A stretch of DNA of 64,000 nt, taken from NCBI GenBank assembly GCA_949284445.1, contig CASDVP010000007.1:19107-83106 (forward strand), read 5' to 3'. Shown here piece by piece: positions 1 through 48,431 of this stretch. A program made the translations under genes and the position numbers. Source of the stretch: an uncultured Bacillota bacterium (GTDB taxonomy: Bacteria; Bacillota_I; Bacilli_A; RFN20; CAG-288). The notes below the pieces were generated by a model. That model saw nothing but the letters and a program-made list of their open reading frames with translations. It was not told the origin of the DNA and did no database searches. The stretch's first letter is position 1. Each line of letters begins with the position of its first letter.

Positions 1-1589
1 AGGTTGTATTAGGTGACTTTGTCAAGACTCCGATCATTCCTAAAGGAGAGACTAAACCTGTTACTTTAACTCTGAAAGTCCAGGATATGGCATCTTATGA
101 TTATTCTGATGCAAACGAAAATGGTTTTGCAACTTACGAATTAGATCCAGGAGATTATCAGATCAGTTTAAGAAAGAATGCCCATGAGGTTATCTCTACT
201 CTAAACTATAAGATCGATGAAGAGTATATCTATGGGACTTCAGTGACTGAACACAAGGTTGAAAACCGTTTTGATGATGTTTCTGAACATATCACTAAAT
301 ACTTATCTCGTTCTGACTGGGAAGGCACTTGGCCGACTAGACCGACTGCTCAAGATCAAGAAGTGACGCAAGAATTCATCAATACTCTCAATTATTCGGT
401 CGATGACAAAGAAACTGATCCTTGGTATTCAAGCACTGCTCCGAATCAGAGCAAAACTCAGCTGACACGTGATCAATGCAAAGTGAAGATCTATCATCTT
501 TTTAATAAAGATTATGATGATCCTTTATGGGATGAACTTTTAGATCAATTGACAGTCAAAGAGATGACGGATATGATCGCAACTGGTAATTTCAGAACTA
601 TCGCTATGGATAATATCAAGAAACCTTTGACGATCGATGGTGATGGACCGATGGGCTTTGCAATCTTTATGGGTGATGATTGTATCTATGATACTTGTCG
701 CTATGCTTCAGAATCAGTCGTCGCTGCTACTTGGAACAAAGAATTAGCTTATAGACAAGGCTTGATGGTCGGAAATGAAGGACTCATCGGAAATGAAAGA
801 GAAGATAGTACACCATATTCAGGCTGGTATGCACCGGCGGTTAATATTCACCGTTCACCTTTCGGTGGAAGAAACTTCGAATATTATTCTGAAGATCCTA
901 TCTTATCTGGAAAATTAGCAGTCGAAGTCATCAAAGGCGCTAAAGAAAAAGGCGTGTATACCTATATCAAACACTTTGCCTTAAACGAACAAGAAACTAA
1001 TCGCGATACTTCTGGTTTAGTGGTTTGGGCTAATGAACAGGCTATGCGAGAACTCTATTTTAAACCGTTTGAATTAGCAGTCGTCGAAGGTAAGACTTCA
1101 GCCATGATGTCTTCGTTTACCCGTATAGGTACGACTTGGGCAGGAGGCTGTTATGAATTATTGACTGAAGTTTTAAGAGAAGAATGGGGATTTAAAGGCA
1201 TGGTCATCACTGATTTCAACCTCAAAGCTTACATGAACACTGATCAGATGATCAGAGCAGGTGGTGATTTAAACTTATCACCTTCTAAGGCTCCGACAAA
1301 AACTTCTACTCCTACTGATATCACCAATATCAGAAGAGCGGCTAAAAATATTTTGTACACTGTCGCTAATTCAAATGCGATGAATGGTCAAGATGATTCA
1401 GTTATCTATGGATATAGACTACCAGGTTGGGTCACGCTCCTCATCGTTATCGATTCCGTGTTTGCAGCTGGAGCGCTTGCTTTAGGTGGTTTATGGTTTT
1501 TCTTCAAAATGCAGAATAAACAATTGAGGTTAGAAGGTGAACAAAACGAAACTGAGAAAGGAGAAACAGAAACAAATGAACAAAATTAA
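1..1589 (+). CDS. Glycoside hydrolase family 3 (beta-glucosidase/beta-hexosaminidase-like), 5'-truncated by the window edge. C-terminal TM anchor plus acidic/Lys-rich tail.
   Basis: The reading frame is open from nt 3 with no stop, so the Met at 87 is internal. The translation carries GH3 catalytic-barrel motifs (KHFALNEQE; GFKGMVITDF with the Asp nucleophile context). It is paralogous to the ORFs at 42882..45842 and 48530..51385, for example shared ...LTSYDY... and WYAP.VNIHRSPF.GRN.EYYSEDP. The last ~50 aa are hydrophobic (GWVTLLIVIDSVFAAGALALGGLWFFF). Confidence 0.8.
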   Translation, partial: VVLGDFVKTPIIPKGETKPVTLTLKVQDMASYDYSDANENGFATYELDPGDYQISLRKNAHEVISTLNYKIDEEYIYGTSVTEHKVENRFDDVSEHITKYLSRSDWEGTWPTRPTAQDQEVTQEFINTLNYSVDDKETDPWYSSTAPNQSKTQLTRDQCKVKIYHLFNKDYDDPLWDELLDQLTVKEMTDMIATGNFRTIAMDNIKKPLTIDGDGPMGFAIFMGDDCIYDTCRYASESVVAATWNKELAYRQGLMVGNEGLIGNEREDSTPYSGWYAPAVNIHRSPFGGRNFEYYSEDPILSGKLAVEVIKGAKEKGVYTYIKHFALNEQETNRDTSGLVVWANEQAMRELYFKPFELAVVEGKTSAMMSSFTRIGTTWAGGCYELLTEVLREEWGFKGMVITDFNLKAYMNTDQMIRAGGDLNLSPSKAPTKTSTPTDITNIRRAAKNILYTVANSNAMNGQDDSVIYGYRLPGWVTLLIVIDSVFAAGALALGGLWFFFKMQNKQLRLEGEQNETEKGETETNEQN

Positions 1590-32003: not shown

Positions 32004-33278
32004 ATGAAAAAAGTCACAAAAATCAGTTCCTTAGTCGCTCTCTCTTTATTGATGTTAGCCGGTTGTAATGGGGGGGGTGATTCCACCACAAAGCAAGATA
32101 ACTCCAAATACAACTGGACGATCACTGTTTCTTCACCAGTAGAACAAACTGCCTTTATTACTGAACAATGCAACAATTTCAAAGAAGAGAATGGTTATAC
32201 GAATGTCAAATTCAACTTTGTCAACTATCCAGAAGGTGAAGTCGATACCAAAGTCGCTGATTGGTCAGCGACCAGTGCACCTGATGTTTATGCGTTTGCA
32301 TCTGATAAGACTTTAAGCTTAGTACAAAAGGGTGCGTTAGCCCGTGTTCCTTCTAATTTCCAATCTCAAATGACGAAAGATATGACTTCTGGTGCTATCG
32401 ATGCCGGAAAATTAGGCGATAATATGTATGCATATCCCTATGCTGGTGATAACGGTTATTTCTTATATATCAACACTGACTTTGTCTCAGTAGACCAAGC
32501 TGCTAAGGTAGAAGATATCATCGCTGCTTGTGAGGAAAAAGGAGTCAAATTCGGTTATCCATTAGGCGAAGCTTTCTATTCGATGGCAATGTTGACCACC
32601 TTCGGTGCTTCTTATACTGTCAAGATGAACGATGATTACTCTAATGTCAGCAGTATTGAAGCTTCTTATGATACCGAGGATGGTTTACAAGCTGCTAAAG
32701 GCTTCCGTGATCTGATCAATAATCCTAACGTCATGACTGGTAATGCTAATGATGTGTTAAAAGCTCCTACTCAAGCTAACGGTTTAGGCGCTATTGTCGG
32801 TGGTTCTTGGAATGCTGCTGATTTTGAAGAAGCTGTCGGTAAAGATAAATTAGTCGCTTTGAAGATGCCGACTATCACTGTTGATAATGAGACTAAGACG
32901 CTTCGTTCGTTCTTGGGTTATAAATTATATGGTGTTAATCCTCAAGTGAGTAAAGAAGATACTGCTAGATTAGCTTTCGATCACTCTTTAGCCAATTATT
33001 TAGTCGGTGCTAAAGTTCAAGAGAATCGCTTTGATACTTTCTCAACCGCTCCTACCAATACGACCGTCGCTAAAATGTCTAAAGTCACTAATAACCAATA
33101 TGTCAAAGCTATCAATGATCAAGCTAATGATGCTATTGCTCAAACTATTGTCCCTCAAGGTCTTTGGGATTCTCCTAAGGCTTTATACGATGGTATCAAA
33201 GCAGGAACGATCAGCACTGACCAACAATTACAAGAAGCTTTGACTGCTTTGAATACTGCTGTAGAAACTTCCAAATAA
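32004..33278 (+). CDS. Lipoprotein sugar ABC-transporter substrate-binding protein (maltose/maltodextrin-binding-like).
   Basis: Lipobox LLMLAGC, then GGG encoded by a poly-G tract. The fold is MalE-like (cluster B SBP) and the gene sits directly upstream of two sugar permease genes. Confidence 0.8.
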   Translation: MKKVTKISSLVALSLLMLAGCNGGGDSTTKQDNSKYNWTITVSSPVEQTAFITEQCNNFKEENGYTNVKFNFVNYPEGEVDTKVADWSATSAPDVYAFASDKTLSLVQKGALARVPSNFQSQMTKDMTSGAIDAGKLGDNMYAYPYAGDNGYFLYINTDFVSVDQAAKVEDIIAACEEKGVKFGYPLGEAFYSMAMLTTFGASYTVKMNDDYSNVSSIEASYDTEDGLQAAKGFRDLINNPNVMTGNANDVLKAPTQANGLGAIVGGSWNAADFEEAVGKDKLVALKMPTITVDNETKTLRSFLGYKLYGVNPQVSKEDTARLAFDHSLANYLVGAKVQENRFDTFSTAPTNTTVAKMSKVTNNQYVKAINDQANDAIAQTIVPQGLWDSPKALYDGIKAGTISTDQQLQEALTALNTAVETSK

Positions 33279-33335: not shown

Positions 33336-34916
33336 ATGGATAATAGAGAACAAGTGGTCGCTAATCAATTAGAATATCTTTCCTTATCTAAGCCGCAGAG
33401 AGCACTATATAAGATCAGTCATTTCTTTCTTGATCTGCCTAAAAGAGTGATGGCATCACTGAGAAGGATTCCTGGCAAGACTAGAAGAGTAAAACAATCT
33501 GCAGAAGGCATCTTTTCATCTATCTATCACGCAGGTAAAGAAGGTGATTATAAAACCCGACTCTCTTTTATTTTAATGGGTTTTGGATTGGTCACTAGGA
33601 ACCAGATTTTACGAGGCGCTTTTTATTTTTTATATGAGGTTTTTTTCATCGTTTTCATGTGCTTATTAGGTGGAAGCTCTCTAGCTTCTTTACCGTTTTT
33701 AGGACAGATAGGTCGTGTCACTTACACCGTTATCGATCCTGATTTTTTGATCGATGTCGAAACCACTGCCTATTATGATAATTCTTTTACGATTCTCTTG
33801 TTTTCAATCATCACTATCGCATTGATATTGATCTTAGTTTTTCTCTGGTATAACCAGTTAAAAGACAGTTTGAGATTACAGAGATTGAGTTATATCGGAA
33901 GAAAAGCATCTGATAAAGAATCATTTAAAAACATCTTCGATAAAAGCTATGAGAAGACGCTTTTATTCTTACCGATGTCAGGTCTCATCCTATTTACAAT
34001 CATCCCGATTATCATCATGATTTTGATCGGATTTACAAACTATAATTCCGCCCATTTGACACCTACTAATCTCTTCGATTGGGTGGGTTTATATAATTTT
34101 GAAGAGCTGTTTTCTACCGGAGCATCCACTAATAACAACATTTTCTTAGAAGTTTTTGGTCAGGTGCTATTGTGGACTTTAGTCTGGGCATTTTTTGCGA
34201 CGTTTTCCAATTACTTTTTAGGGATGATCATGGCTATGATCATCAATATCAAAGGCATCAAACTAAAAAAGGTGTGGAGAACTATTTTGATTTCAACGAT
34301 CGCGGTTCCACAATTCATCTCGCTATTATTAGTCTCTTATATTTTCTCTGATTATGGTGTTGTCAATGGAATACTGACTTCTTTAGGCTTGGTTTCCGGT
34401 CGAGGAATACCATTCCTATCTGATGCCTTACTAGCTAAAGTGATGATCATCTTGATCAACACTTGGGTCGGAATTCCATACACGATGCTCATCTGCTCTG
34501 GTCTATTGATGAATATTCCTGATGATCTATATGAATCTGCCCGAATCGATGGCGCTTCACCATTAAAGATGTATATCAAGATTACACTCCCTTATATGTT
34601 ATTTGTCACTACACCTTATTTGATTTCTCAATTCGTGGGTAATATCAACAACTTCAATGTCATTTATTTATTGACTTCTGGCGGACCGGCATTTTCTTAT
34701 CCAGTCGCTGATGTTCCTTATCAAGTCTCATCAACGGGCGTCGGTCATACTGATTTGCTCATCACTTGGATCTATAAGATGACAGTCACTTCTAATTCTA
34801 AAGACTACGGAGCTGCTTCAGTCATCGGTATGCTCATCTTCGCGGTTGTCGCCGTCATCTCTTTGATCTTCTACAACCGTTCTAATTCTGTGAAAAATGA
34901 GGAGGAATTCCAATGA
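33336..34916 (+). CDS. Sugar ABC transporter permease, MalF-like with a long N-terminal region.
   Basis: 526 aa with multiple TM segments. EAA loop YESARIDGASPLKMYIKITLPYM. Confidence 0.85.
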   Translation: MDNREQVVANQLEYLSLSKPQRALYKISHFFLDLPKRVMASLRRIPGKTRRVKQSAEGIFSSIYHAGKEGDYKTRLSFILMGFGLVTRNQILRGAFYFLYEVFFIVFMCLLGGSSLASLPFLGQIGRVTYTVIDPDFLIDVETTAYYDNSFTILLFSIITIALILILVFLWYNQLKDSLRLQRLSYIGRKASDKESFKNIFDKSYEKTLLFLPMSGLILFTIIPIIIMILIGFTNYNSAHLTPTNLFDWVGLYNFEELFSTGASTNNNIFLEVFGQVLLWTLVWAFFATFSNYFLGMIMAMIINIKGIKLKKVWRTILISTIAVPQFISLLLVSYIFSDYGVVNGILTSLGLVSGRGIPFLSDALLAKVMIILINTWVGIPYTMLICSGLLMNIPDDLYESARIDGASPLKMYIKITLPYMLFVTTPYLISQFVGNINNFNVIYLLTSGGPAFSYPVADVPYQVSSTGVGHTDLLITWIYKMTVTSNSKDYGAASVIGMLIFAVVAVISLIFYNRSNSVKNEEEFQ

Positions 34917-35830
34917 TGGCTGATCTATCTCTAGGAAAAAAGAATTCGCATTATCGTTCTCATAAACGGGCGATTCTCACTAGAAATATCTTCGTTTATA
35001 TCTTTTTAACAGTCATATCTATCATCTGGCTGATCCCGTTTGTATATCTAGTTTTCCAGTCTTTGTCTTCGATATATTCGCCTTCTAATTTCATGCCTTT
35101 TTTACCAACAGAAGAGAATATCGCAAACGGATATCCGGTCTGGACTTTTGATAATTATATCAATCTCTTCACTAACGACAATTATCCGTTCTGGAGATGG
35201 TATCTAAACACTTTTATCATCTCACTAGTGACTATGATCATTCAGACGATCTTGGTGTTAGGCACTTCGTATGCACTGTCTCGTCTGAGATTCAAAGGTC
35301 GTCAAGGGATCATGAGATTGATTTTAGTCTTAGGTATGTTCCCTGGCTTTTTAAGCACGATCATCATCTATTTCACACTGCAATTATTCCATTTGGAGTC
35401 CAATATCTTTTCTTTGATTCTGATCTATATCGCTTCTTCTGCGATGCAGTATTACATTGCTAAAGGATTCTTTGATACGATACCTAAATCACTGGATGAA
35501 GCTGCTATGATCGACGGAGCTAATAAGAATACAATTTTCTTTAAAATCATCATGCCTTTATCTAAACCGATCATTGTCTACACTCTGCTCATCTCTTTCA
35601 CAGCACCTTGGGGTGATTTTATGACCGCCTCTTATATCGCAGGTGGAAACCCGAGCATGATGACAGTCGCTGTCGGTTTACAACAGATGATCACTTTGAC
35701 ACAGAGAGTTCAGATGTTCCCAACTTTCTGCGCTGGTGGTGTCGTAGTCGCTATCCCAATCATGGCTTTATTCTTCTGGTTACAGAAGTATTATGTTGAA
35801 GGAATCACTGGTGGAGCAGTCAAAGGATGA
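34913..35830 (+). CDS. Sugar ABC transporter permease, MalG-like.
   Basis: EAA loop DEAAMIDGANKNTIFFKIIMPLSKP. ATGA overlap with the upstream gene. Confidence 0.85.
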   Translation: MMADLSLGKKNSHYRSHKRAILTRNIFVYIFLTVISIIWLIPFVYLVFQSLSSIYSPSNFMPFLPTEENIANGYPVWTFDNYINLFTNDNYPFWRWYLNTFIISLVTMIIQTILVLGTSYALSRLRFKGRQGIMRLILVLGMFPGFLSTIIIYFTLQLFHLESNIFSLILIYIASSAMQYYIAKGFFDTIPKSLDEAAMIDGANKNTIFFKIIMPLSKPIIVYTLLISFTAPWGDFMTASYIAGGNPSMMTVAVGLQQMITLTQRVQMFPTFCAGGVVVAIPIMALFFWLQKYYVEGITGGAVKG

Positions 35831-37434
35831 GAAAAGCACTTATACTTGGATTATTACCGGTTTTAGTCTCTTGTCAAACTGCATCTTCATCAGTCATCGA
35901 AGGTCAGATATTTGAAGAAGAGATTAAAAGACAAGTCATTGATGATAAATATCGCAATTATTATGAGATATTTGTCAGTTCTTTTGCTGATAGTGATCAG
36001 GACGGGATCGGAGATCTAAACGGAATAACTTCGAAGATTTCATATCTTTCAGAGTTAGGATTCACAGGTTTATATCTAACGCCTATTTTTGAATCTAATT
36101 CTTATCACAAATATGATGTCAACGATTATTTTGCTATCGACGAAGATTTCGGAACGATTGATGATTTAAAAACGCTTATCAATACTGCTCATGCATCTGA
36201 GATGAAAGTGATTTTAGATTTGCCATTAAATCATACCGGTTATTATAACAAGTGGTTTGAGAAATCTCTTTTAGCGCATCAAAAAGAGATCAATGGTCTA
36301 GAGATGACAGACGAAGAGAAGAAGTATTCAGACTTATATGTTTTCTATGATACTTTAGAAGAAGCCAAACAGAGCGGTAAAACGTATTATAGAGCAGGTG
36401 CTAATCCATTCTATTATGAAGCTAATTTTTCTTCTGATATGCCAGAACTCAATTATGATAATCCACTGACTTATGATCTTGTTGAAACAGTCTTTAAATA
36501 TTATTTAGATTTAGGTGTAGATGGGTTCAGGCTCGATGCTGCTAAGTATTATTACTTGAATGATACTAGTAGGAATATCGAAGTCTTAAACAACTTTAAA
36601 AAGTATTGTCAGACTATTAAAGACACTTATATCGTCGCTGAAGTTTGGGATAGTCAAAGCATTATTAAAGAATATTCCAAATCCGAGATCGATTCTTTCT
36701 TTTATTTTCCGATGTCCAGTGCCTACCCTTCATCATTCATCACGAATAGTTTTGGATTTGAAGGCATGCATAGAGATAAATATTTAAATGGGCAATTAGA
36801 GATGCTTTCTTGTGATACTAAAATTGCAGCACCATTTTTAGATAATCATGATATGAATAGATTGACACAAAGCGGTGATATCAGACGTACTAAGATGCAA
36901 TTAGGATTATTAGCGATGTGCAACGGTTCTAGTTTCACTTACTACGGTGATGAAATCGGGATGAGCTCTTCAAATAATCCAGGCGGTGATTACGCAGATA
37001 GCAATTATCGCACCCATTATTATTGGGGTGATGAAAATATCGAATGTCATGATCCAAGCTATAGCAATCGACAGACAAATTATTTTGGTACAGCAAAAGA
37101 ACAATCCGAAGATCCGAATTCCATTTTGAATTATCAAAAAAAAGCTAATCTATTGAGAAATGCCTATAAGTCGATAGCTAGAGGTGAGATCTCAGTCACT
37201 GAAGAAGATGAGAAGGTCAACGATAATGATGATGTTTATCTTTTAGCATATGATAAAACCTATGAAGATGAGAAGGTCAAATTAGTCTTTAATTTTTCGA
37301 TGAATCAGACTTTGAGTTATAAGACTGATTTGAAAGTCTCACACGTTTTGTTATCTGATGTTAATAAAAAGGCGACATATTTAAATGGTGAATTAGAACT
37401 TCCACCATATAGCATCGCCTTATTAGAGTATTAG
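35827..37434 (+). CDS. GH13 alpha-amylase-family lipoprotein (alpha-glucosidase/neopullulanase-like).
   Basis: Lipobox LPVLVSCQ. GH13 region II GVDGFRLDAAKY, region III VAEVWD, and the ...NHDMNR region. Confidence 0.85.
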   Translation: MRKALILGLLPVLVSCQTASSSVIEGQIFEEEIKRQVIDDKYRNYYEIFVSSFADSDQDGIGDLNGITSKISYLSELGFTGLYLTPIFESNSYHKYDVNDYFAIDEDFGTIDDLKTLINTAHASEMKVILDLPLNHTGYYNKWFEKSLLAHQKEINGLEMTDEEKKYSDLYVFYDTLEEAKQSGKTYYRAGANPFYYEANFSSDMPELNYDNPLTYDLVETVFKYYLDLGVDGFRLDAAKYYYLNDTSRNIEVLNNFKKYCQTIKDTYIVAEVWDSQSIIKEYSKSEIDSFFYFPMSSAYPSSFITNSFGFEGMHRDKYLNGQLEMLSCDTKIAAPFLDNHDMNRLTQSGDIRRTKMQLGLLAMCNGSSFTYYGDEIGMSSSNNPGGDYADSNYRTHYYWGDENIECHDPSYSNRQTNYFGTAKEQSEDPNSILNYQKKANLLRNAYKSIARGEISVTEEDEKVNDNDDVYLLAYDKTYEDEKVKLVFNFSMNQTLSYKTDLKVSHVLLSDVNKKATYLNGELELPPYSIALLEY

Positions 37435-37447
37435 GAGGGTATTTTTT

Positions 37448-39985
37448 ATGGCAAGTTTAAAGCTCGAACACATTTACAAGGTGTATCCTAACGGAACAAA
37501 AGCAGTCAACGATGTCTCACTCGATATCAAAAATGGTGAATTCATCGTTTTTGTCGGTCCATCAGGTTGTGGTAAATCGACAACTTTAAGAATGATTGCT
37601 GGCCTAGAAGAGATCACGGCTGGTGAATTATATATCGATAACCAGATCGTCAATGATGTCGAACCCAAGGATAGAGATATCGCTATGGTTTTCCAAAACT
37701 ACGCCTTATATCCTCATATGACCGTCTATGAAAATATGGCTTTTGGTTTAAAGCTGAGACATGTTCCTGATGATGTGATTCAAGAAAAAGTTTTATGGGC
37801 TAGTGATATCTTAGGAATCAAAGAATATCTAGATCGTAAGCCTCGTGCGATGTCTGGTGGTCAAAGGCAGCGTGTAGCTTTAGGAAGAGCTATATTAAGG
37901 GATCCTAAAGTCATGCTTTTAGATGAGCCTTTATCTAACCTTGATGCTAAGTTGAGAACTCAGATGAGAACTGAGATTGCCAAACTGCATCAGAAGTTGA
38001 AGACGACTTTCATCTATGTCACTCATGATCAAGTCGAAGCTATGACGTTAGGAGATCGAGTCGTCGTCATGAAAGCCGGTCGCATTCAACAGGTTGATAC
38101 TCCTAAGAATTTATATGATTACCCTTCTAATATCTTTGTCGCTGGATTCATCGGAACACCTCAGATGAATTTCTTTGACTGCACATTGCTTAAAGAAGAC
38201 GAAAATATCATCATCAAATTTGAAAATGAAAATGTGCGATTAAAAGTTTCTTATAATCAATTGATAAAAGTCAATCCGGATTACTTAGATGGAAAGCATC
38301 CGATCATCTTAGGTATCAGATGCGAGCACGTGCATCTGACAGATAAAGCTGATTCCTTAGCTATCAAAGTCAAGATTTCAAGATTTGAAGAATTGGGATC
38401 TGAAGCACTGATCTATGCTAAGCTTAGCGACGATGATGATTCAATAGTTTCAGAAAAAGGACAGATGATCATCAAAACAGATAGGATCGATGATCTCAAA
38501 GCCGATGATGTCGCCTATGTGAGATTCGATTTATCACACACTTATTTCTTTGATAAAGAGACGGAAGAAACTATTACTCCAAGACTTCCAAAAGAAAATG
38601 TTTTCGATGTTAAATTATCAGAAAAAGAACTTGAATTATTAAATATCCGCTTACCTCTTCCAGAGGTTTTACAAGGTAAAAATGCTTCTGATGCTAAGCT
38701 TATAATTCCTGTGGATGCTTTTAGAATAGATGAAAAAGGAACTGATGTCAAAGTTGTTGATAAAGAAGTTCTAAACGGAATTAAACTATATCATCTATGC
38801 CTTAATAATCGTGTCTTTTTCGCTGTTTTAGATGAGGATTTAGAGATTGGAAAAGAGGCAAAGTTATCTTTTGATTATTCTGAGATAACTGTTAAAAAAG
38901 ATGATGAAGTAATAATAGAGCCTCTTAAAGAATATGATGAATATAAAGCTGCTTTTTATAATTACCAAACCGTTATTTCTAAAGGAGATTTTTCTGAATT
39001 TACCCAGCTTAGAGATGATAAGATCAAAGCAGCTACTCAGTATATGGACGCTCAGATCTTATTAGAAAATAATGAGTATGAAAAACAGAGATTAGCTCTC
39101 AGTGAACTGACTGAAGAAGAGAAAGCTGACTCGAATAAACAATTGCAAGAATTTATATCTAAAAATAAAGCTGAAATCAAAAAGATCAAAGCTGAGAATA
39201 AAAAAGGAGCTAAAGAACTCAAACTTAAATTTAATGTGTTAAAGAAAAAGCTTAAAGCTGATAATGATCGATTATTCGATCAGAAGAAAGAGCTTGAGAT
39301 CAAAGAATATAATGAATTCAAACAGAATAATAAAGACGTAGATGCTCTCAAGCGACGTAAGGATGAATATCATATCTTCAAAGATAATTTGCAGACTGAA
39401 AAAGAAAACACTTTGAATTTAGCTATCAATGGAGCGACGATGGATTATGAATCTAAACTTTCTTCTTTGAATGCTTCTTCAAGAAGAAAGATCACTCTTT
39501 TAAAGAAAGAGATCACTGAAAAGAAGAAAGAATATGCTCGTCAGATAAACGGTGAAAAAGTTTTATCTAAAGAACATCAAAAACGCTTGAAAGTTTTGGA
39601 AACCAAACGAAAAGAAGCTATCGAAAGAGCGTCATTAGTCTTCTTCTTTAAGATCGAAAATGAGTGCTATTCTTTATTGACTGATATCATCTCTAATAAA
39701 TTGATACAAGGCTTAGGGACAAGAGTGTTCAGCAAAGAATTTAAGGTCGAAGTTCCTCATGATGCTTATAAGCTGACTCATTCATCAAATTCGATAAAAG
39801 GGACTGTGATTGATAATTTAAACTTTGAATCAGCTTTATTTGCCAAGATCAAATTAAATTCACTCGATAAATATATCTATATGAAAGTAGACAAACCTTT
39901 AGAGATCAACAAAGAAGTATCTCTTGAAATCGATGTTTCTAAAGCTATGATCACTGAAACTGGCATGAATATCAGGTTGTATTAG
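37448..39985 (+). CDS. Sugar ABC-transporter ATPase (MalK/MsmK-like). It carries a C-terminal extension of about 475 aa: a Lys/Glu-rich coiled coil followed by a second MOP/TOBE-like domain.
   Basis: N-terminal 370 aa: Walker A GPSGCGKST, signature LSGGQRQRVALGRA, Walker B LLDEPLSNLD and a TOBE domain. Residues 500-700 are low-complexity K/E repeats. The C-terminus is EFKVEVPHDAYKLTHSSNSIKGTVID... Confidence 0.85.
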   Translation: MASLKLEHIYKVYPNGTKAVNDVSLDIKNGEFIVFVGPSGCGKSTTLRMIAGLEEITAGELYIDNQIVNDVEPKDRDIAMVFQNYALYPHMTVYENMAFGLKLRHVPDDVIQEKVLWASDILGIKEYLDRKPRAMSGGQRQRVALGRAILRDPKVMLLDEPLSNLDAKLRTQMRTEIAKLHQKLKTTFIYVTHDQVEAMTLGDRVVVMKAGRIQQVDTPKNLYDYPSNIFVAGFIGTPQMNFFDCTLLKEDENIIIKFENENVRLKVSYNQLIKVNPDYLDGKHPIILGIRCEHVHLTDKADSLAIKVKISRFEELGSEALIYAKLSDDDDSIVSEKGQMIIKTDRIDDLKADDVAYVRFDLSHTYFFDKETEETITPRLPKENVFDVKLSEKELELLNIRLPLPEVLQGKNASDAKLIIPVDAFRIDEKGTDVKVVDKEVLNGIKLYHLCLNNRVFFAVLDEDLEIGKEAKLSFDYSEITVKKDDEVIIEPLKEYDEYKAAFYNYQTVISKGDFSEFTQLRDDKIKAATQYMDAQILLENNEYEKQRLALSELTEEEKADSNKQLQEFISKNKAEIKKIKAENKKGAKELKLKFNVLKKKLKADNDRLFDQKKELEIKEYNEFKQNNKDVDALKRRKDEYHIFKDNLQTEKENTLNLAINGATMDYESKLSSLNASSRRKITLLKKEITEKKKEYARQINGEKVLSKEHQKRLKVLETKRKEAIERASLVFFFKIENECYSLLTDIISNKLIQGLGTRVFSKEFKVEVPHDAYKLTHSSNSIKGTVIDNLNFESALFAKIKLNSLDKYIYMKVDKPLEINKEVSLEIDVSKAMITETGMNIRLY

Positions 39986-39995
39986 AGGCTCAGTT

Positions 39996-40631
39996 ATGAA
40001 AACGAATAAATTATTATTGTTACTCGCTTTGCCTTTTCTCACCTTAGCTTCTTGCTCTGATAGTGGAATCGAAGCTTTAGAAGCTTCAAAAGAAGCTGTT
40101 AAGAATTTGAATGAGGTGACAAGCACTGAGTATTCTCTCAGCGTTGAAGGTAATATTTCGCGCTTTGATAGCTTTGAAGAACCAGAGAATAGTTATAAAG
40201 TTCCTCAAGGCATCTTAGGTGATACTGGGTATTCATATATATTAAGAACTCCGCTTTTGCTCAATGAAGAGACTTATTATCCAAAAGAAGATATTTCGGA
40301 GTCTATAGATACTTCTCAATACGGGTATTTTAAAATCATCAGTCGTCTTTTATGGGATTATGATACTCGCACTTCCTTAAAATTTGAAATGAGAGACGAT
40401 GATTTAGTCTTTTATGTCAAAGGTTTATCTAAGAATTTAGTCTTTTATCACGTTTTAACCGATCCGGACAATTTCCTCTATTCCGAAGTTCAGATCTATG
40501 CCCGTTTTGATATCACTTTAGTTTATAATTCAGAAGGGTTGCTCATCGAAGAAACTATCAAGAGTCAGAATCCTTTAAGCGATAGCAAAGAAAAGACAGT
40601 GAATGTGAAAACAACCTATTCTTATTCTTAA
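39996..40631 (+). CDS. Lipoprotein, hypothetical.
   Basis: Lipobox LTLASCSDS. Confidence 0.6.
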   Translation: MKTNKLLLLLALPFLTLASCSDSGIEALEASKEAVKNLNEVTSTEYSLSVEGNISRFDSFEEPENSYKVPQGILGDTGYSYILRTPLLLNEETYYPKEDISESIDTSQYGYFKIISRLLWDYDTRTSLKFEMRDDDLVFYVKGLSKNLVFYHVLTDPDNFLYSEVQIYARFDITLVYNSEGLLIEETIKSQNPLSDSKEKTVNVKTTYSYS

Positions 40632-40633
40632 AT

Positions 40634-41422
40634 ATGAAGAAAACTTATCTATTAGTCAGTTTATTTTTACTTTTATCTTCTTGTAACAATGATATCCGAC
40701 AAGATATCTCCGATTTTTTGAGCGGATGCAGCTTAGAAAAAGCTAAAGGATTCACTAAAACCATCTCTTTGAATTATTCATCTATTTTAGAGACGAGAAA
40801 AGAACAAGAAGAGTTAGGAAAGAGCGATATTTTATTCGTCGCTGATTTGACTAGCACTGAAGATTACTTTTCCTATGTTAAAGAAACCTTTTCAGGAGAA
40901 AACCATCTCTTTGATCAAGATAGTCAGATGTATGTGAATCTGACTGTTGCTGAAACCGAATTTGATGAAAGCAACGATGTTTACACCACTACTGTATATA
41001 AAGAAGGTTATAAAGATCTAAACAATCCTGAAGAGATCAGCATCTATCAAGAGGTGACTGAAACACCTAAAAGCCTCATTCAATCTCGAATCGATAAGAT
41101 TTTTTATTCCTCTAATCAAATAGATGGTGTCTCTGGTGGTCTTTATTATGCTGATTTCTTTATCTCAATAGCTAAATTCGATATGTATATCGATATTAAA
41201 GAAGATAAATTGTTCTATCATCTCGACGATTATCCTTTTAAAAATGATAAAGAAGAAGGACTGGTCAACGAGAAGATAATCATGAACGAAGTCGGCATGC
41301 TTGAATCATTAGAATTGACTAATGATAACTTTACGACTTCAGAAAGAAATAAGACTCTGATAAATGTCGTTTATAATGTTGATATAGATAGAAATCAGTA
41401 TGATTTAAGCGATAAAAAGTAA
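40634..41422 (+). CDS. Lipoprotein, hypothetical.
   Basis: Lipobox LLLSSCNND; starts 3 nt after the previous lipoprotein gene. Confidence 0.6.
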   Translation: MKKTYLLVSLFLLLSSCNNDIRQDISDFLSGCSLEKAKGFTKTISLNYSSILETRKEQEELGKSDILFVADLTSTEDYFSYVKETFSGENHLFDQDSQMYVNLTVAETEFDESNDVYTTTVYKEGYKDLNNPEEISIYQEVTETPKSLIQSRIDKIFYSSNQIDGVSGGLYYADFFISIAKFDMYIDIKEDKLFYHLDDYPFKNDKEEGLVNEKIIMNEVGMLESLELTNDNFTTSERNKTLINVVYNVDIDRNQYDLSDKK

Positions 41423-41640: not shown

Positions 41641-42857
41641 ATGAAGAAAAAAGCATTAGGCTTAGTCGCTTTATCGCTAGTATTCGGTATGTCATTTGCT
41701 ACTTCATTGATCTCTTGTACCAAAACTAGTTCGACAGTTGGGGGGGTGGTCAAACTGAAAAGATCTTAGAATCCATCGCAGTCACTAAAGCACCCACCAA
41801 AACCACTTATTTAGAAGGAGAAGAATTCGATAAATCAGGTATGGAAGTCACTGCTACTTACAGTGATGATTCCACTGAAAAGGTTAACAATTATCGCATC
41901 AAAGTCGCACCAGATGGTCCTTTAACTCCGAGTGATACATCCGTTACGCTCACTTATGAAGATAAATCTACTACTCAAGCTATCACTGTCAATGCGATCG
42001 TTTGCACCAAATTAGAGATCACTAAAGATCCTATCAGCACCGTCTTCGCACGTGGTGGCACCTATGACTTCACCGGCTTAGAAGTCACAGCTACTATCGA
42101 ACATCAGGATGAACCTAAAGTATTGAGCACTGATGAATACACCTTAACAGTCGGCGGTAAAACAATCAAAGATGGTGATACTGTTGAATTAGATGGTGCA
42201 GAAGCCTCTTATCCTGTCACTGTCAGTTATAAGAATCAAACTGATACCTTCGATATCAGAGTCATCAACGGTTATAAGATTGAAGGCGAAAATATCCTCT
42301 ATACTGAACCAACCGATGAAGATAATAATTTCGTAAGATTAAAACTATCTGAAGACTCAGGCTATTTAACTGAACCGAGTAAAAATGGTACCATTCGTGC
42401 TGTATCTGGAGTGGCTGATGCTGAATATGCAAGTGGAAAAGCATACTTAGGTGACTTAAAGAATGGTAACGTCATTGAGTTCTATTTCAGAAGTGAAGTT
42501 GCTACTACTGCTGATATTTCTATTTCCGCCGCAAGCGGTTATCTAGTTAAAGATGATGGTAACTGGACTCCTGAAGAAATGGGCGATATGCAGTTTAATA
42601 AAACTGTCACAGTGACACTTAATGGTACTGTAGCTAATGTTCCTGATGATGTCATCCTTGAAGGTGGAACTCCTGAAGATGTCGGTGGTGTCAATGCTAT
42701 GCTTTGGACTAACTGGAAGACAGTTAACTTTGGAACAATGGAAGTTAAAGAAGGACTCAATGTTGTTAAGTTTGTAGTTGCTAGTGAATATACAAATTGC
42801 CACAATGGCAGCTGTGCGTTCAACTTAGACTATTTATCTGTTGATTTTGGAGCTTAA
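41641..42857 (+). pseudogene. Surface lipoprotein gene split by a frame change at a poly-G tract. A 42-codon lipoprotein signal peptide ORF (41641-41769) is followed by a 338-aa ORF (41841..42857) that encodes two Ig-like repeats and a C-terminal beta-sandwich domain. It is either a phase-variable gene or a frameshift pseudogene.
   Basis: The signal peptide MKKKALGLVALSLVFGMSFATSLISC has a lipobox. A G7 run sits at about 41740-41746. Downstream of the tract, in the frame of the 338-aa ORF, the sequence is open back to the tract and encodes ...GGQTEKILESIAVTKAPTKTTYLEGEEFDKSGMEVTATY..., which is a complete Ig-like repeat. One extra G would fuse the two ORFs. The C-terminal domain resembles that of the 1576..2247 lipoprotein. 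Confidence 0.6.
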
Positions 42858-42881: not shown

Positions 42882-45842
42882 ATGAAATTAAAACTCAATA
42901 AACTTACGCCTGGTAGGATAGCTCAACTCATCGGTGCTGGTGTATTATCAATCGCCTTTATAGCTGGCACATGTGTAGCAGCTTATTATGCACCTATGAT
43001 CACCACGTTCTTGTGTGGTACTGGTGTCAGTTTCGAAACTGAAGAATTCAAACAATCTGCTAAATTATCTGATCAACTTTGTCAAGAAGTTGCTGAAGAA
43101 GGTGTTGTTCTTCTTAAAAATAAAGACAATGCTTTACCAATCAATACCGACAAAGTGAATATCTTCGGTTGGAGAGCTACTGATCAAGGCTTCCATCTCT
43201 CTGGTATTGGTAGTGGTGCTTCTACTATCAATGAGAATAAGAAGGTCACTTTGTTAGATGCATTTGAAAAAGAACATATCGACTATAATAGCGAATTGAT
43301 TGATTTCTATAATAGCTATGATTCTTTTAATGGTGGATATGGCACTGGCAATGGTGAACGTATGACCTTCAGAGAGCCATCTCTAAGCGATTATAGTGAT
43401 GAGTTATGGGCAAATGCCATTGACTATTCTGATACTGCAATTGTTGTTCTTTCTAGAGTCTCTGGTGAAAACGTCGACGAAATTCCGATGTATCAGAATA
43501 AAGCTCATCAATCTCGTGATAATGATAGACATTATCTTGAACTCACTACTGAAGAAGAAGCTTTGCTTCAAAATTGTCGTGAGAATTTTGATAAAGTCAT
43601 CGTCTTATTAAACACATCCAATCAAATGGAATTAGGTTTCTTAGACGAATATGATATCGATGCCTGCTTGTTAGTCGGTCTCACTGGTCAATCTGGTGCT
43701 TTAGCTATTCCTCGTATCTTAAAAGGTGATATCAATCCTTCAGGTCGTACAACTGATATTTATCCATATGATTTGACTTCTGATCCGACATTTAATAATT
43801 ATGCTAGAAGTGGAGATCATGTCACCTATGTAGAAGATATCTATTATGGTTATAAATACTATGAGACAAGATATGCTAACGACGAAAATGGTTATAAAGC
43901 TGCTATCCAATTCCCGTTCGGATATGGTTTATCATATACTGATTTTGACTGGAATCTCGATAGTATGACTATCGATGGTGAAGAATATGATGTCTCTGGT
44001 TATAATGATACAAAGCCGATTGAATTAAGCAAAGATACAGAAGTGGAACTTTCTTTCAGCTGTCATAACAGCGGTGCTGTTGATGGTGCTGATGTCATTC
44101 AACTCTATGTCAATGCGCCATACACTAAAGGTGAAATTGAAAAACCAGTCACAAAGTTAGTCGATTTTGCTAAGTCAACCAGTGTTCCTGCTGGTAAATC
44201 TCAAACTGAGATCACTATGTCATTCACCGCATATGATTTAGCTTCTTATGACGCTTATGATGCTAATGATAATGATGCTGCAACTTGGGAATTAGATGCT
44301 GGTGAATATTCTCTTAACTTTATGGATAACTCTCATGAAGCTAAGACGATGACATCAGATGGCAATGGTATCAATTCTTTAAAGTTCGAAGTCAAGAATG
44401 ATATCGTCTATGATACCGATCCGGTAACCGGTAATGAAGTCACCAATCGTTTCACTGGTGCAGATGCAATCGCTGGAGTTCCTATCGATGGAAGTACTGT
44501 TTTCAGTCAACCAGTCGATTATTTATCTAGAGCTGATAATTTTGCTAACTTACCTAAAGCTCAAGGACAGCCTTCTAATTCTAATGAAGTTTCTAAAGCT
44601 AATAATTATAGTAACACCGGTTTTGATCAAACAGAGATGCCTACTCTCGATCAAAATAATGGTCTCTATCTCCACACTCGTAAAGATGGTAGTAAGGCTA
44701 CATTAGAAGAATTAAATGGCAAGAACTTCACTGAAACAGGTCCTCTTGCATATAACGATGAACTCATCAATGAAATCGGTGCTAATTATGATTCTGAAAA
44801 GCTTGATCAACTTGTCGATCAATTAAGTGCCAATGATGCTTGTAAAATAGTTGAGGATTCCGGCTTTGGTTCTCCAGCTGTTGAATCTATCGGTAAAGCT
44901 CGTGCTTATGACTTTGATGGTCCTGCTGGATTCAATAGTAACACCCAGACCGGTGTCACTTCAGGTGAGTGGACTGCTTATCCTAATCAAACGTTAATCG
45001 GTCAAACCTTCTCTAAACGTCTTGCAAAACAGATCGGCTTATCAATGGGTGCTGAAGGAAAAAATACTGATTTACAAGGATGGTATGCTCCTGTTGTCAA
45101 TCTCCATCGTTCACCATTCAATGGTAGAAACTATGAGATGTATTCAGAAGATCCAGTCTTAAGTGGTAAATTAGGTGCTCAGACTATCGATGGTGCTAAG
45201 GCTAATGGTGTCTATTGCTTCCTTAAACACTTTGGTCCGACAGAACCTGGTCAAAACTCTCGTAATCAAAACTCTTGGATGACTGAACAAAACTTACGTG
45301 AAAATTACTTCAAAGCTTTCGAACTTGCTGTCAAAGAAGGTGGATGTAATGCTGTCATGTCTTCATTCAGTTCTTTAGGTGGTGTTTGGACTGGTGCTAA
45401 CAACGGTATCTTCGTTGATATCTTAAGAAATGAATGGGGATTCAGAGGTTGTGTCTTAACTGACTGGTGCGATGGCGGCGGTAACATGAATTGCCACGTT
45501 GGTGTCAGAGGTGGAAATGACATCTGGCTCAATCCTAATGTCGGTAATAACAGGAGTAAATTAGACAGAAGCAATCCTACTGAAGTCTATTGCGCAAAGC
45601 AAGCTGCTAAGAACGTTATCTACACTATTTGTAACACTAGATACTATTCACAAACCTATGATCATTCTCAAGATGAAATGGTCTTCCCGATCGGTGAAGC
45701 AAGTATCAATGTTCCATTTGCTTGGTGGATTCCAACTTTAGCTGCTATTGATGTCGTGATGATCGGTGGTTCTCTTGTCTGGGCTGGTTTCACACTCTTC
45801 TATCATAAAAAAGAGAAAGAAACTGAACAAGAACAGAACTAG
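42882..45842 (+). CDS. Glycoside hydrolase family 3, with a domain-permuted order (alpha/beta sandwich, then Fn3-like, then catalytic barrel) and predicted TM anchors at both termini.
   Basis: N-terminal signal-anchor (IAQLIGAGVLSIAFIAGTCVAAYY). GH3 alpha/beta-domain motif EEGVVLLKNKDNALPI. Catalytic barrel near the C-terminus (KHFGPTEPGQ...; GFRGCVLTDW). C-terminal TM segment (WWIPTLAAIDVVMIGGSLVWAGFTLFY) with a charged tail. 986 aa. Confidence 0.85.
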   Translation: MKLKLNKLTPGRIAQLIGAGVLSIAFIAGTCVAAYYAPMITTFLCGTGVSFETEEFKQSAKLSDQLCQEVAEEGVVLLKNKDNALPINTDKVNIFGWRATDQGFHLSGIGSGASTINENKKVTLLDAFEKEHIDYNSELIDFYNSYDSFNGGYGTGNGERMTFREPSLSDYSDELWANAIDYSDTAIVVLSRVSGENVDEIPMYQNKAHQSRDNDRHYLELTTEEEALLQNCRENFDKVIVLLNTSNQMELGFLDEYDIDACLLVGLTGQSGALAIPRILKGDINPSGRTTDIYPYDLTSDPTFNNYARSGDHVTYVEDIYYGYKYYETRYANDENGYKAAIQFPFGYGLSYTDFDWNLDSMTIDGEEYDVSGYNDTKPIELSKDTEVELSFSCHNSGAVDGADVIQLYVNAPYTKGEIEKPVTKLVDFAKSTSVPAGKSQTEITMSFTAYDLASYDAYDANDNDAATWELDAGEYSLNFMDNSHEAKTMTSDGNGINSLKFEVKNDIVYDTDPVTGNEVTNRFTGADAIAGVPIDGSTVFSQPVDYLSRADNFANLPKAQGQPSNSNEVSKANNYSNTGFDQTEMPTLDQNNGLYLHTRKDGSKATLEELNGKNFTETGPLAYNDELINEIGANYDSEKLDQLVDQLSANDACKIVEDSGFGSPAVESIGKARAYDFDGPAGFNSNTQTGVTSGEWTAYPNQTLIGQTFSKRLAKQIGLSMGAEGKNTDLQGWYAPVVNLHRSPFNGRNYEMYSEDPVLSGKLGAQTIDGAKANGVYCFLKHFGPTEPGQNSRNQNSWMTEQNLRENYFKAFELAVKEGGCNAVMSSFSSLGGVWTGANNGIFVDILRNEWGFRGCVLTDWCDGGGNMNCHVGVRGGNDIWLNPNVGNNRSKLDRSNPTEVYCAKQAAKNVIYTICNTRYYSQTYDHSQDEMVFPIGEASINVPFAWWIPTLAAIDVVMIGGSLVWAGFTLFYHKKEKETEQEQN

Positions 45843-46372: not shown

Positions 46373-47719
46373 CTAGCTTTCTTTATCAGGTATTGAAACT
46401 GTGATTGTAAAGACATCATCATCGATTGTAATCTCTGATATTCCATCATACTTATGAGCTAATAATTCGATGCTTTTGATTCCTAGTCCGTGATTGACTT
46501 TGTCGCTTTTATGAGTTTTAAAGGACTTATTATTCTGATCGTATTGAATATCACCGCTGAAATAGTTGTAACAGACAATCTTAGATAAATGCTGTTTATC
46601 ACTGACATCTACAGAAATGATTCTCTTTTCTTTGTTTTGAATTTGCATGACGGCTTCGATTGCGTTATCAAGGATATTTCCTACTAGTGTATATAAATCA
46701 GTGTTAGACACTTCTTTAAAGGCATTAGGATTGACATTCATCGTCAGCTTGATATCGTGTTTTTTGCAATAATACCATTTTTCTTGCAAGATGATATTTA
46801 AGACCTGGTTATCAGTGACTATGATTTCATTATAGGCGCTGATATCATCATCTAATTGATTCAACAATTCTTCGGCTTCTTTTCCGCCTTGTCTCAGAAT
46901 TCTCACTTGATGTTTTAAATCATGAGCTTTAATCTTTAAAGCTTCCATATTGGTTTTAGCATATTTATATTGCCATTCTTGCTGTTTTAATAGTCTTGAA
47001 GCGATGTAATTATCAATCTTCAGATCATTGTTTCGTTTGACAAAGTTATCAAAAGAGATGATCAGAGTGAGAGATAAAAGCTCTGAGATCATCGCCATGA
47101 TGTACATGAGACTGTTATCACGGCTGAAATATTCGCAGATAGAGCTGAGGATGATATTAAATAAGATGATTATACTGTAGAAAAAGAACAAGGGTTTATC
47201 TAACTTGTTCAGTGATGAATCGATGATGTTTTTGAGCAAGAGAATGCCAAAAATGAGATAGACAAATAGATAAGTGCCAACATAAAGGAATCCGCTAGCG
47301 ACCGTGATGTGTGAGATATCAAGAAAGTTCAAACTAGGATTGAATCCTTCGACGATCAAGATATAGATCGAAAAAGAAAACTGTCTTAAGGAATAAGCTT
47401 TTAAATAATTAGAAAACAATTCATATGGTCCGCCTTTAAAGAGGATTAACATCCATAAAAAGATGACGCCAAAAAGAAGTATATAACAGAAACAAGAAGT
47501 GAAAATGATCGCGACATTATTGTAGTTTACGGCTTCAAAAAAATAATTTTCAAAATAAGTGAGACCAGCTATAATACCTGCTAAAATTATAAAACCACTT
47601 ATTAATTTTAAAATAAAATGCTTTCTTCTCTCCAGCTTGTAGAAAAATAAAAAAGAAGCGAGCAAAGTCTCTATGATCAGAAGCGTCCATCTGAACGCAT
47701 AAAATGAAATCGAGTTCAT
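46373..47719 (-). CDS. Membrane sensor histidine kinase of the HPK10 (AgrC/LytS-like) type, GHKL ATPase.
   Basis: 6-7 N-terminal TM helices. H-box region KAHDLKHQVRIL. The C-terminal HATPase region has an N-box (NILDNAIEA) and G-box (HGLGIKSIE). It lies 4 nt downstream of the LytTR regulator gene. Confidence 0.75.
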   Translation of the reverse strand: MNSISFYAFRWTLLIIETLLASFLFFYKLERRKHFILKLISGFIILAGIIAGLTYFENYFFEAVNYNNVAIIFTSCFCYILLFGVIFLWMLILFKGGPYELFSNYLKAYSLRQFSFSIYILIVEGFNPSLNFLDISHITVASGFLYVGTYLFVYLIFGILLLKNIIDSSLNKLDKPLFFFYSIIILFNIILSSICEYFSRDNSLMYIMAMISELLSLTLIISFDNFVKRNNDLKIDNYIASRLLKQQEWQYKYAKTNMEALKIKAHDLKHQVRILRQGGKEAEELLNQLDDDISAYNEIIVTDNQVLNIILQEKWYYCKKHDIKLTMNVNPNAFKEVSNTDLYTLVGNILDNAIEAVMQIQNKEKRIISVDVSDKQHLSKIVCYNYFSGDIQYDQNNKSFKTHKSDKVNHGLGIKSIELLAHKYDGISEITIDDDVFTITVSIPDKES

Positions 47720-47723
47720 GATT

Positions 47724-48431
47724 TTAATTTATATATGAGCTAAAAGCTAATAAGAAACTGTCTTTATACATCCTAGTCAAAGGGATGCGATTATCGCTAT
47801 CAGTGAGTATAACTTCTTGTTTATTGATCTCTTTCACATATTTTAAGTTTACTAAAAAGGAATTAGATGGGCGAGCAAATTTATTAGAGATAGTTGCTGA
47901 TAATTCCTTCATGGTGCCTCTGACAATATGGGTTTTATCTTTTAAATGGATATATAAATAATGTTTGATGATCTCGAAATAAAGGATGTCGTTTTCTTTC
48001 AGGGTGATGATTCCATCAGTTGATTTAAAAGTCAGGATTTTGTCACTTTCTTTATTGATGCGTTTGAGGGCTTTTTTGATTTTTAATGAAAATTCAAAAT
48101 AGCTTAGTGGTTTTAAGATATAATCGATAGCATCGACATCATAGCTATCTACTGCAAATTGAGCAGTTTTAGTTATGAACATGATCGGAATATCTGGGTT
48201 AGTTAATCTTATTTTCTTAGCGACATCGATACCATTGACTTGTTCATTCAGAATGATATCTAGAAGAACTAAGTCATAGTTATTAAAATCCAGTTTTAAA
48301 AACTCATCGGATTTACTGAGAGCAGTGAGCTCATATCCGATATCGTTTTCCTTAGAAAAGCGAGAAAGAAACTCCTCAGTGATCTTTCTTTCAGCTTCTT
48401 CATCTTCTAATAATGCAATTCTAAGTTTCAT
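47724..48431 (-). CDS. Response regulator with a LytTR DNA-binding domain (AgrA/LytR family).
   Basis: Receiver domain (MKLRIALLEDEE...DLVLLDI) and LytTR domain (ILTFKSTDGIITLKENDILYFEI...LYIHLKDKTHIVRGTMKEL). Confidence 0.85.
   Translation of the reverse strand: MKLRIALLEDEEAERKITEEFLSRFSKENDIGYELTALSKSDEFLKLDFNNYDLVLLDIILNEQVNGIDVAKKIRLTNPDIPIMFITKTAQFAVDSYDVDAIDYILKPLSYFEFSLKIKKALKRINKESDKILTFKSTDGIITLKENDILYFEIIKHYLYIHLKDKTHIVRGTMKELSATISNKFARPSNSFLVNLKYVKEINKQEVILTDSDNRIPLTRMYKDSFLLAFSSYIN

Follow-up and report, generated by a model that had tools for sequence, protein, structure and literature searches.

The window analyzed here, a stretch of 64,000 nucleotides from an uncultured gut Bacilli bacterium (assembly GCA_949284445.1, contig CASDVP010000007.1, positions 19,107 to 83,106), encodes a long ATPase of the MsmX/MalK/UgpC family, belonging to a maltodextrin-type ATP-binding cassette (ABC) importer of the CUT1 class. 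The protein consists of a canonical core of 376 residues, ending with the regulatory domain (RD1) typical of these ATPases, and of a tail of 469 aa in which a second (RD2) and a third (RD3) regulatory-type domain flank a helical module. RD2 and RD3 are diverged further copies of the same regulatory domain. The canonical layout of the family, ~360-400 aa with a single regulatory domain, is thus exceeded by a protein of 845 aa with three such domains and a helical module of 225 aa. This architecture characterizes its lineages, is not unique to this genome, and is undescribed.

Domain organization of the long ATPase

The features of the gene are listed below, with the evidence on which each was drawn.

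37448..39985, + strand: complete gene of the long ABC importer ATPase of MalK/MsmX type, 845 aa and stop codon (list of open reading frames, ORFs)
37433..37438, + strand: strong Shine-Dalgarno sequence AGGAGG, 9 nt 5' of the ATG, overlapping the stop codon of the upstream gene, which encodes a glycoside hydrolase of family 13 (GH13) (sequence read)
37448..38152, + strand: nucleotide-binding domain (NBD), aa 1-235, catalytic motifs all intact (Pfam ABC_tran, E 1e-33; motif scan)
38153..38575, + strand: RD1, canonical MalK-type regulatory domain (OB_MalK plus TOBE_2), aa 236-376 (Pfam, structure alignments)
38576..38962, + strand: RD2 (domain A), conserved P-R-I-P linker and second regulatory-type beta domain, aa 377-505 (hhalign, PDB profile, AlphaFold)
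38963..39637, + strand: helical module, aa 506-730, ~225 aa (AlphaFold secondary structure, length conservation)
39329..39382, + strand: best conserved stretch of the helical module and putative hairpin tip, aa 628-645, N-K-D..R......F-K (column conservation)
39638..39982, + strand: RD3 (domain B), third regulatory-type beta domain, aa 731-845 (hhalign, blastp, conservation, Foldseek)

The core is that of a complete importer ATPase in all respects monitored, in agreement with the first-pass annotation, made by reading the sequence. The motif scan detected Walker A (GPSGCGKS), the Q-loop (QNY), the signature (MSGGQ), Walker B (VMLLDE) and the H-loop (THD). RD1 matches Pfam OB_MalK (E 5e-10, 40.5 bits, cut-off 27); TOBE_2 scores 19 bits, under its 21-bit cut-off, and the domain aligns with the C-termini of the solved ATPases 7x0q (residues 236-368) and 6yir. 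Residues 1-376 as a whole align end to end with solved ATPases of 360-375 aa (E 7e-128 for 7x0q, 1e-119 for 6yir). In line with this, MsmX/MalK structures retrieved by Foldseek with the full-length model cover the first 376 residues only, with template-modelling scores (TM-scores) of at most 0.41 for the query and of 0.89-0.94 for the targets. Among NCBIfam models, the protein passes that of the UgpC subfamily (NF008653, 465 bits, cut-off 432), and misses the MalK equivalog (NF008233, 413 bits, cut-off 568).

Sequence and fold alike show RD2 and RD3 to be homologues of one another and of MalK regulatory domains. The limits of both were drawn from the alignment of phmmer matches, in which RD3 spans residues ~724-845, and is annotated here as 731-845. 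The two domains are related in blastp (E 1.8e-6, shuffle z 7.2) and in hhalign comparisons (97.8%, E 1e-12), and RD2 aligns over nearly its full length with RD1 of the same protein (hhalign 93.9%, E 1.5e-7). The profile of RD2, searched against the PDB, matches solely regulatory domains of the MalK/MsmX type (2d62, E 8.7e-7; 2it1, E 1.1e-5; also 7x0q, 1g29 and 6yir), and the profile of RD3 finds the same proteins, weakly. Conserved RD3 residues are K751, G757, F761, the P770-H771-D-A-Y stretch, E837 and the C-terminal I-R-L-Y.

Structure predictions agree with the sequence comparisons. AlphaFold2 models, built on input alignments of 32-42 sequences, reached a mean predicted local distance difference test (pLDDT) of 95.7 and a predicted TM-score (pTM) of 0.69 for the tail, and of 86.6 and 0.65, respectively, for the full-length protein. 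Beta domains are found at 383-505 and 732-837 in both models, and RD2 is predicted to be all-beta, with block pLDDT values of 85-97. In Foldseek, the tail model matches the regulatory domains of MsmX, MalK, SugC and PotA over 119-132 columns (2.6-3.8 Å, E 3e-5 to 7e-5; named targets 6yir, 2yyz, 1v43 and 7x0q), the output being silent on whether RD2 or RD3 is the domain aligned. The regulatory domains of ModC and the di-Mop pair of ModE are also matched in fold.

The domain ancestry of the tail, surmised earlier to be an added regulatory module, is therefore supported by hhalign, by the RD2 profile and by the Foldseek matches of the tail model. The single second TOBE-like domain of the first-pass annotation corresponds to RD3, which is indeed C-terminal and regulatory-like, but the additional domains are two, RD2 having been overlooked. 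None of the family models in use reveals them. RD2 and RD3 are unmatched by Pfam TOBE, TOBE_2 and OB_MalK, residues 377-529 have no Pfam match, and no NCBIfam model was found over the tail. A Pfam match of RD3 to DUF276 (residues 730-845, 19 bits, cut-off 25), the only one obtained there at E values up to 10, is sub-threshold and was dismissed as noise.

A frameshift or a mis-assembly fusing a normal malK gene to a downstream ORF, envisaged earlier as an explanation for the length of the protein, is refuted, because the same 845-aa protein is found, letter for letter, on at least four contigs of different metagenome assemblies, and 71 homologues of 841-881 aa come from different species; the reading frame is unbroken, AlphaFold confidence is high across the core/tail junction, and nothing was found in favour of an artefact.

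The helical module

According to AlphaFold, the module is made up by a short helix (506-512) and four long ones (516-551, 556-627, 631-700 and 702-729). A break of three residues (628-630), coinciding with the conserved N-K-D motif, separates the two longest helices, which are 72 and 70 residues long, and the other breaks, at 552-555 and 701, are roughly symmetrical about this turn. Conservation is at least 0.7 at N628, K629, D630, R637, F644 and K645, and scores 0.48 in the tip window versus 0.33-0.39 in the ascending arm.

A K/E-rich helical segment had been noticed before, and is present, but does not directly follow the core, since RD2 (377-505) lies between the two. Its description as repeat-like, with ~200 aa, is not upheld. 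The module spans ~225 aa, no tandem DNA repeats were found in it, and no similarity was detected among its helices (z < 0). The hydrophobic period, averaged over the family, is 3.6, with little power at the clean heptad value of 3.5. About 25% of the residues are hydrophobic, a composition compatible with packed helices. A match of the helices to NCBIfam fuso_auto_Nterm (14.9 bits, cut-off 55) was dismissed as noise.

The length of the module is kept within narrow limits. Of 72 sequences, 60 have a distance from RD2 to RD3 of 231-238 residues, one has 243, and the other 11, mostly members of a subclade labelled Clostridia, have 257-258. That length is conserved while sequence is not points to a structural constraint acting on the stalk. 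The central break, the mirrored breaks, the conserved turn, the high pLDDT and a partial Foldseek match of the tail model to the alpha-hairpin adaptor EmrA (4tko) together suggest that the helices form an antiparallel hairpin, ~15 nm long, with ~100 residues in each arm, turning at 628-630. The EmrA match, the sole non-ABC match of long extent to the tail model, is weak (318 columns, probability 0.82, root-mean-square deviation 23.9 Å). The base of such a hairpin would bring RD2 next to RD3 in a pseudo-dimer, with the tip towards the cytoplasm.

Distribution and conservation

The RD3 motif K-x5-G-x3-F-x3-[FY]-x4-P-H-x2-[YF], written as a degenerate codon pattern, was searched for in the GTDB species-representative genomes. 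The pattern retrieved 118 stretches in 118 species bins; all of them fall in ORFs featuring the family terminus x-I-x-E-x3-[IL]-x-[LI]-x, usually IRLY or IKIY, with zero false positives. The complete copies (n = 71) measure 841-881 aa. Homologues of similar length are hence the norm of the clade, a finding which the first-pass annotation would have set against its own reading if accompanied by a known domain; no annotated domain of Pfam or NCBIfam covers the tail.

Carriers are uncultured gut, rumen and faecal metagenome-assembled genomes (MAGs) labelled Bacilli, Bacillales, Mollicutes, Acholeplasmatales, Anaeroplasmataceae (including a MAG of Anaeroplasma bactoclasticum) and Erysipelotrichaceae. 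Clostridium sp. CAG:568 and Candidatus Enterosoma, Pelethenecus, Onthovivens and Alectryobacillus are further carriers, and one subclade is labelled Clostridia, Christensenellaceae or Oscillospiraceae. The nearest genome copy, in an uncultured Bacilli MAG, is 82.7% identical to the protein of the window, the next ~59%.

Conservation varies markedly along the protein. Mean pairwise identity is 0.85 in the NBD, 0.47 in RD1, 0.30 in RD2, 0.27 in the helices and 0.40 in RD3, which is thus the most conserved part of the tail. The ATPase motifs are intact in all of the 72 family sequences analyzed.

Searches by other routes were less productive. The tail, compared by phmmer to 1.84 billion cluster representatives, gave 45 matches, among which ~10 full-length proteins of 848-871 aa with identical layout. 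A genome scan with peptides of a single tail sequence gave no match, and a word-indexed homologue search with RD3 alone or with the RD3 profile retrieved fragments only; with the entire tail it retrieved nothing, probably because K/E-rich words took up its list of 8000 candidates. Full-text literature searches found no description of an RD2-hairpin-RD3 tail, and neither a family model nor a solved structure of it was found.

Three loci (L025, L029 and L030) carry a full Bacilli-type operon with a family member in MAGs labelled Alistipes onderdonkii, Corallococcus sp. and Bacteroides uniformis, respectively, and these placements are probably due to binning contamination. One MAG (JBAYXD01; L023 and L093) has two copies of the family. 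One is complete (845 aa); the other has an open frame of 193 codons only, with an in-frame stop upstream of domain B, and may be a pseudogene or reflect an assembly break.

Short and degenerate relatives

Several phmmer matches of 624-652 aa share the post-core and C-terminal regions with the long ATPase and miss the middle. In the short forms P0034, P0038 and P0039, RD2 and RD3 are joined by a short basic linker, and no hairpin is present. The hairpin is accordingly an insertion into a pre-existing RD2-RD3 tandem. MalK-like ATPases of ~585 aa in Mycoplasma genomes are possible further members of the short-form group. The two loci looked up, P0034 and P0039, are orphan genes, the latter adjoining a GH13 gene.

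Two long relatives have a degenerate core. In P0003 (851 aa; L121, 8001-10556), Walker A is altered, and the glutamine of the Q-loop, the signature and the histidine of the H-loop are gone, but the full tail is kept; its gene follows a MalF-MalG pair, with no gene for a solute-binding protein (SBP). P0027 (946 aa; L124, 8001-10841) lacks most of RD1 and, among the motifs, the glutamines and glutamates of Q-loop and Walker B, respectively, the signature and the H-loop, but retains both RD2 and RD3 and has a helical region of greater length; its gene is an orphan surrounded by housekeeping genes, with no permease genes nearby. Retention of the tail where catalytic motifs are lost suggests, short of proof, a role separable from ATP hydrolysis.

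Genomic neighbourhood

In the window, genes are arranged in the order GH77 (amylomaltase), SBP, MalF-like, MalG-like, GH13 lipoprotein, long ATPase, and two lipoproteins of no known family. The neighbours flanking the ATPase gene are the following.

32004-33278, + strand: SBP lipoprotein (Pfam SBP_bac_8)
33336-34916, + strand: MalF-like permease, 526 aa (Pfam BPD_transp_1)
34913-35830, + strand: MalG-like permease (Pfam BPD_transp_1)
35827-37434, + strand: GH13 alpha-amylase-family lipoprotein (Pfam)
39996-40631, + strand: downstream lipoprotein, 211 aa (ORF, lipobox; no Pfam family)
40634-41422, + strand: downstream lipoprotein, 262 aa (ORF, lipobox; no Pfam family)

Judged by this operon content (GH77, GH13 and MalEFG-like genes), the long ATPase would energize maltodextrin uptake. 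Neither a second MalK-type ATPase nor another CUT1 permease was found in the 64 kb of the window. The SBP-MalF-MalG-(GH13)-ATPase order, ending with the long ATPase, recurs in most of the 118 related loci. The GH13 product has a lipoprotein signal (…LLPVLVSC), and is therefore probably surface-anchored, feeding the importer. Firmicute permeases of the MdxF type are shorter than the 526 aa of the MalF-like protein, which may have an extra N-terminal or loop region.

The start of the first downstream lipoprotein gene lies 10 nt past the ATPase stop codon. Judged by spacing, both downstream lipoprotein genes are co-transcribed with the ATPase gene. They are kept downstream of it in 23-26 related loci, and their products may serve the maltodextrin system as extracellular accessories.

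Farther downstream, a gene for a surface lipoprotein with a weak Big_3 match (41641-41746, on to 42857) contains a G7 tract (41740-41746) shortly past the lipobox cysteine. With seven G residues, as in the window and in L001, the frame is broken, and only a 338-aa ORF is left, starting from an internal ATG at 41841; a contig otherwise near-identical (L002) has G8 at the same tract and encodes an intact lipoprotein of 405 aa. The tract looks like a phase-variable homopolymer switch. Three GH3 paralogues are also found in the window (9-1547, 42882-45842 and 48548-51385), 31-33% identical over aligned regions, and a pair made up by a LytTR response regulator and a histidine kinase (46373-48431) lies between two of them.

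Comparison with known systems

The closest relatives of known structure are MsmX of Bacillus subtilis (6yir) and Clo1313_2554 of C. thermocellum (7x0q), which feature the same NBD and OB/TOBE domains and are 53-55% identical to residues 1-376, as measured on Foldseek alignments spanning the 357-366-residue chains of 6yir and 7x0q. Both stop at ~366-370 aa, whereas the long ATPase runs 469 aa further. MsmX is an orphan ATPase shared among transporters; the long ATPase, in contrast, is encoded within an operon. E. coli MalK has the same core fold, but a single regulatory domain.

Likeness to other proteins concerns separate parts of the tail. ModC of the M. acetivorans ModBC transporter (3d31) and the di-Mop pair of ModE resemble RD2 and RD3 in fold, but differ in ligand chemistry, lack a helical hairpin, and share no detectable sequence similarity with the tail. 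Periplasmic adaptors of the EmrA type (4tko) similarly have a long antiparallel helical hairpin which leaves and re-enters beta domains. The weak match makes this an analogy only, as EmrA-type adaptors are periplasmic, their beta domains are different, and no ATPase is present. Rad50 and SMC proteins are ABC ATPases with a long antiparallel coiled coil and a conserved apex. Their coil interrupts the NBD, separating its N-terminal from its C-terminal half, whereas in the long ATPase the NBD is contiguous (1-235) and the helices (516-729) follow two regulatory-type domains. The coil being outside the NBD, the protein is not of the Rad50/SMC type.

Possible functions of the tail

The C-terminal domains of ABC importer ATPases regulate transport by limiting NBD movement, examples of effectors being EIIAGlc for MalK, molybdate for ModC and methionine for MetN (PMC10710835). 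The regulatory domain of E. coli MalK is a docking surface for the proteins EIIAGlc or MalT and controls NBD closure; in ModE and ModC, ligands are sensed by TOBE domains in pairs, in the frame of trans-inhibition (PMC10710835).

By analogy with these cases, RD2, RD3 and the stalk are tentatively regarded as an enlarged regulatory or docking platform acting on the ATPase dimer, a reading for which the odds may fall somewhat short of even. The RD2/RD3 pair and the stalk would hang under the MalK dimer, the two domains lying side by side like the RD-RD pair of the MalK dimer or the di-Mop pair of ModE. The conserved stalk tip, pointing into the cytoplasm, would be an interaction site. The platform might bind a cytoplasmic partner protein or a metabolite, or else pair with the stalk of the other protomer, and either event would control whether the NBDs can close, as ATP hydrolysis requires. 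The platform could possibly also signal the state of the transporter to a partner. In favour of this reading are the homology of RD2 and RD3 to MalK regulatory domains, the selection on the tail seen in its fixed length and in its conserved tip, RD3 motifs and terminus, the intact ATPase motifs and the operon linkage to permeases, the relatives which keep a tail behind dead motifs, and the short forms, which reveal a modular build.

Several observations weigh against this picture. The hairpin topology, the pairing of RD2 with RD3 and the dimer contacts are read from secondary structure, from pLDDT and pTM values and from one weak Foldseek match. The sequence resemblance of RD3 to RD1 is weak (hhalign 63% only), and the link between the two goes via RD2. 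The net charge of the module varies from -5 to +16 across the family and offers no electrostatic clue; a conserved basic charge of the stalk, which would hint at membrane or nucleic-acid binding, was rejected on the same count. The degenerate relatives could be decaying genes, instead of evidence for an independent role of the tail.

A bolder proposal, which we consider rather unlikely, is that RD2, the hairpin and RD3 constitute an undescribed cytoplasmic signalling or docking device, mounted on a type I ABC importer, whose conserved stalk tip and TOBE-like pair would capture a partner, such as a transcription regulator or a metabolic enzyme, according to transport state, and the function of which would outlast the loss of ATPase activity, as in the orphan degenerate paralogues.

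The tight control of helical length in the face of divergent sequence, typical of molecular rulers, would fit a structural spacer or scaffold, a rigid stalk of ~15 nm with a tip positioning something at a fixed distance from the membrane, without regulation of the ATPase. Transporters might be clustered tip-to-tip, or cytoplasmic maltodextrin enzymes tethered, such as the GH77 amylomaltase encoded upstream, the gene of which heads the same cluster. That the tip is the best conserved helical part, and that short forms without hairpin exist, so that the stalk is an add-on to RD2 and RD3, are consistent with this. Yet a spacer leaves unexplained why two regulatory-type domains flank the stalk and why, within the tail, RD3 is conserved best, and no candidate cargo co-varies nearby beyond transporter genes and extracellular lipoproteins. 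A role as a spacer is considered doubtful.

The tail might act as a sensor for trans-inhibition only, the RD2/RD3 interface binding an intracellular sugar or sugar phosphate, in the way TOBE pairs of ModC and ModE bind molybdate, and locking the NBDs apart in a replete cell. Trans-inhibition by C-terminal domains has precedent (PMC10710835). The fold matches to ModE di-Mop and to the ModC regulatory domains point in this direction, and the invariant polar RD3 residues K751, H771, D772 and E837 could line a putative pocket. A ligand switch, however, has no need of a 225-residue hairpin, and to our knowledge no MalK-type regulatory domain has been shown to bind a sugar. The MalK-type domains reviewed in PMC10710835 are controlled via proteins. 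We judge a pure sensor improbable.

Just as improbable seems a function of the tail unrelated to transport (moonlighting), in which the ATPase would merely be a membrane anchor, or not even that in orphan copies. P0027, with its tail, dead NBD and no permease genes nearby, would suit such a role, as would P0003, which has a tail despite a dead NBD, and the orphan short forms P0034 and P0039. Set against these are the 72 full-length members analyzed, all with intact motifs and operon-linked to permeases; moreover, orphan ATPases of the MsmX type normally serve transporters encoded elsewhere, as MsmX does in B. subtilis.

Significance

Among ABC importer ATPases, MalK is the textbook case, and views of how sugar uptake is controlled post-translationally are modelled on its one regulatory domain. 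The novelty here lies in a conserved variant that has three regulatory-type domains and a predicted stalk of fixed length, ~15 nm, and is present in more than 100 uncultured gut and rumen species and missed by both Pfam and NCBIfam. The tail motif is a clean marker (118/118 true members), and has revealed what are probably mis-binned contigs in public MAGs. The system is tractable, as the core is 54-55% identical to MsmX and Clo1313_2554, and the tail is predicted with very high confidence. The finding hints at unexplored control or organization of transporters in lineages which are abundant in animal guts and have almost no experimental biology. If the tail proved to be a signalling device, reduced-genome gut Bacilli and the Mollicutes-like and Christensenellales-like lineages would have their own counterpart of the control exerted through MalK by MalT and EIIAGlc.

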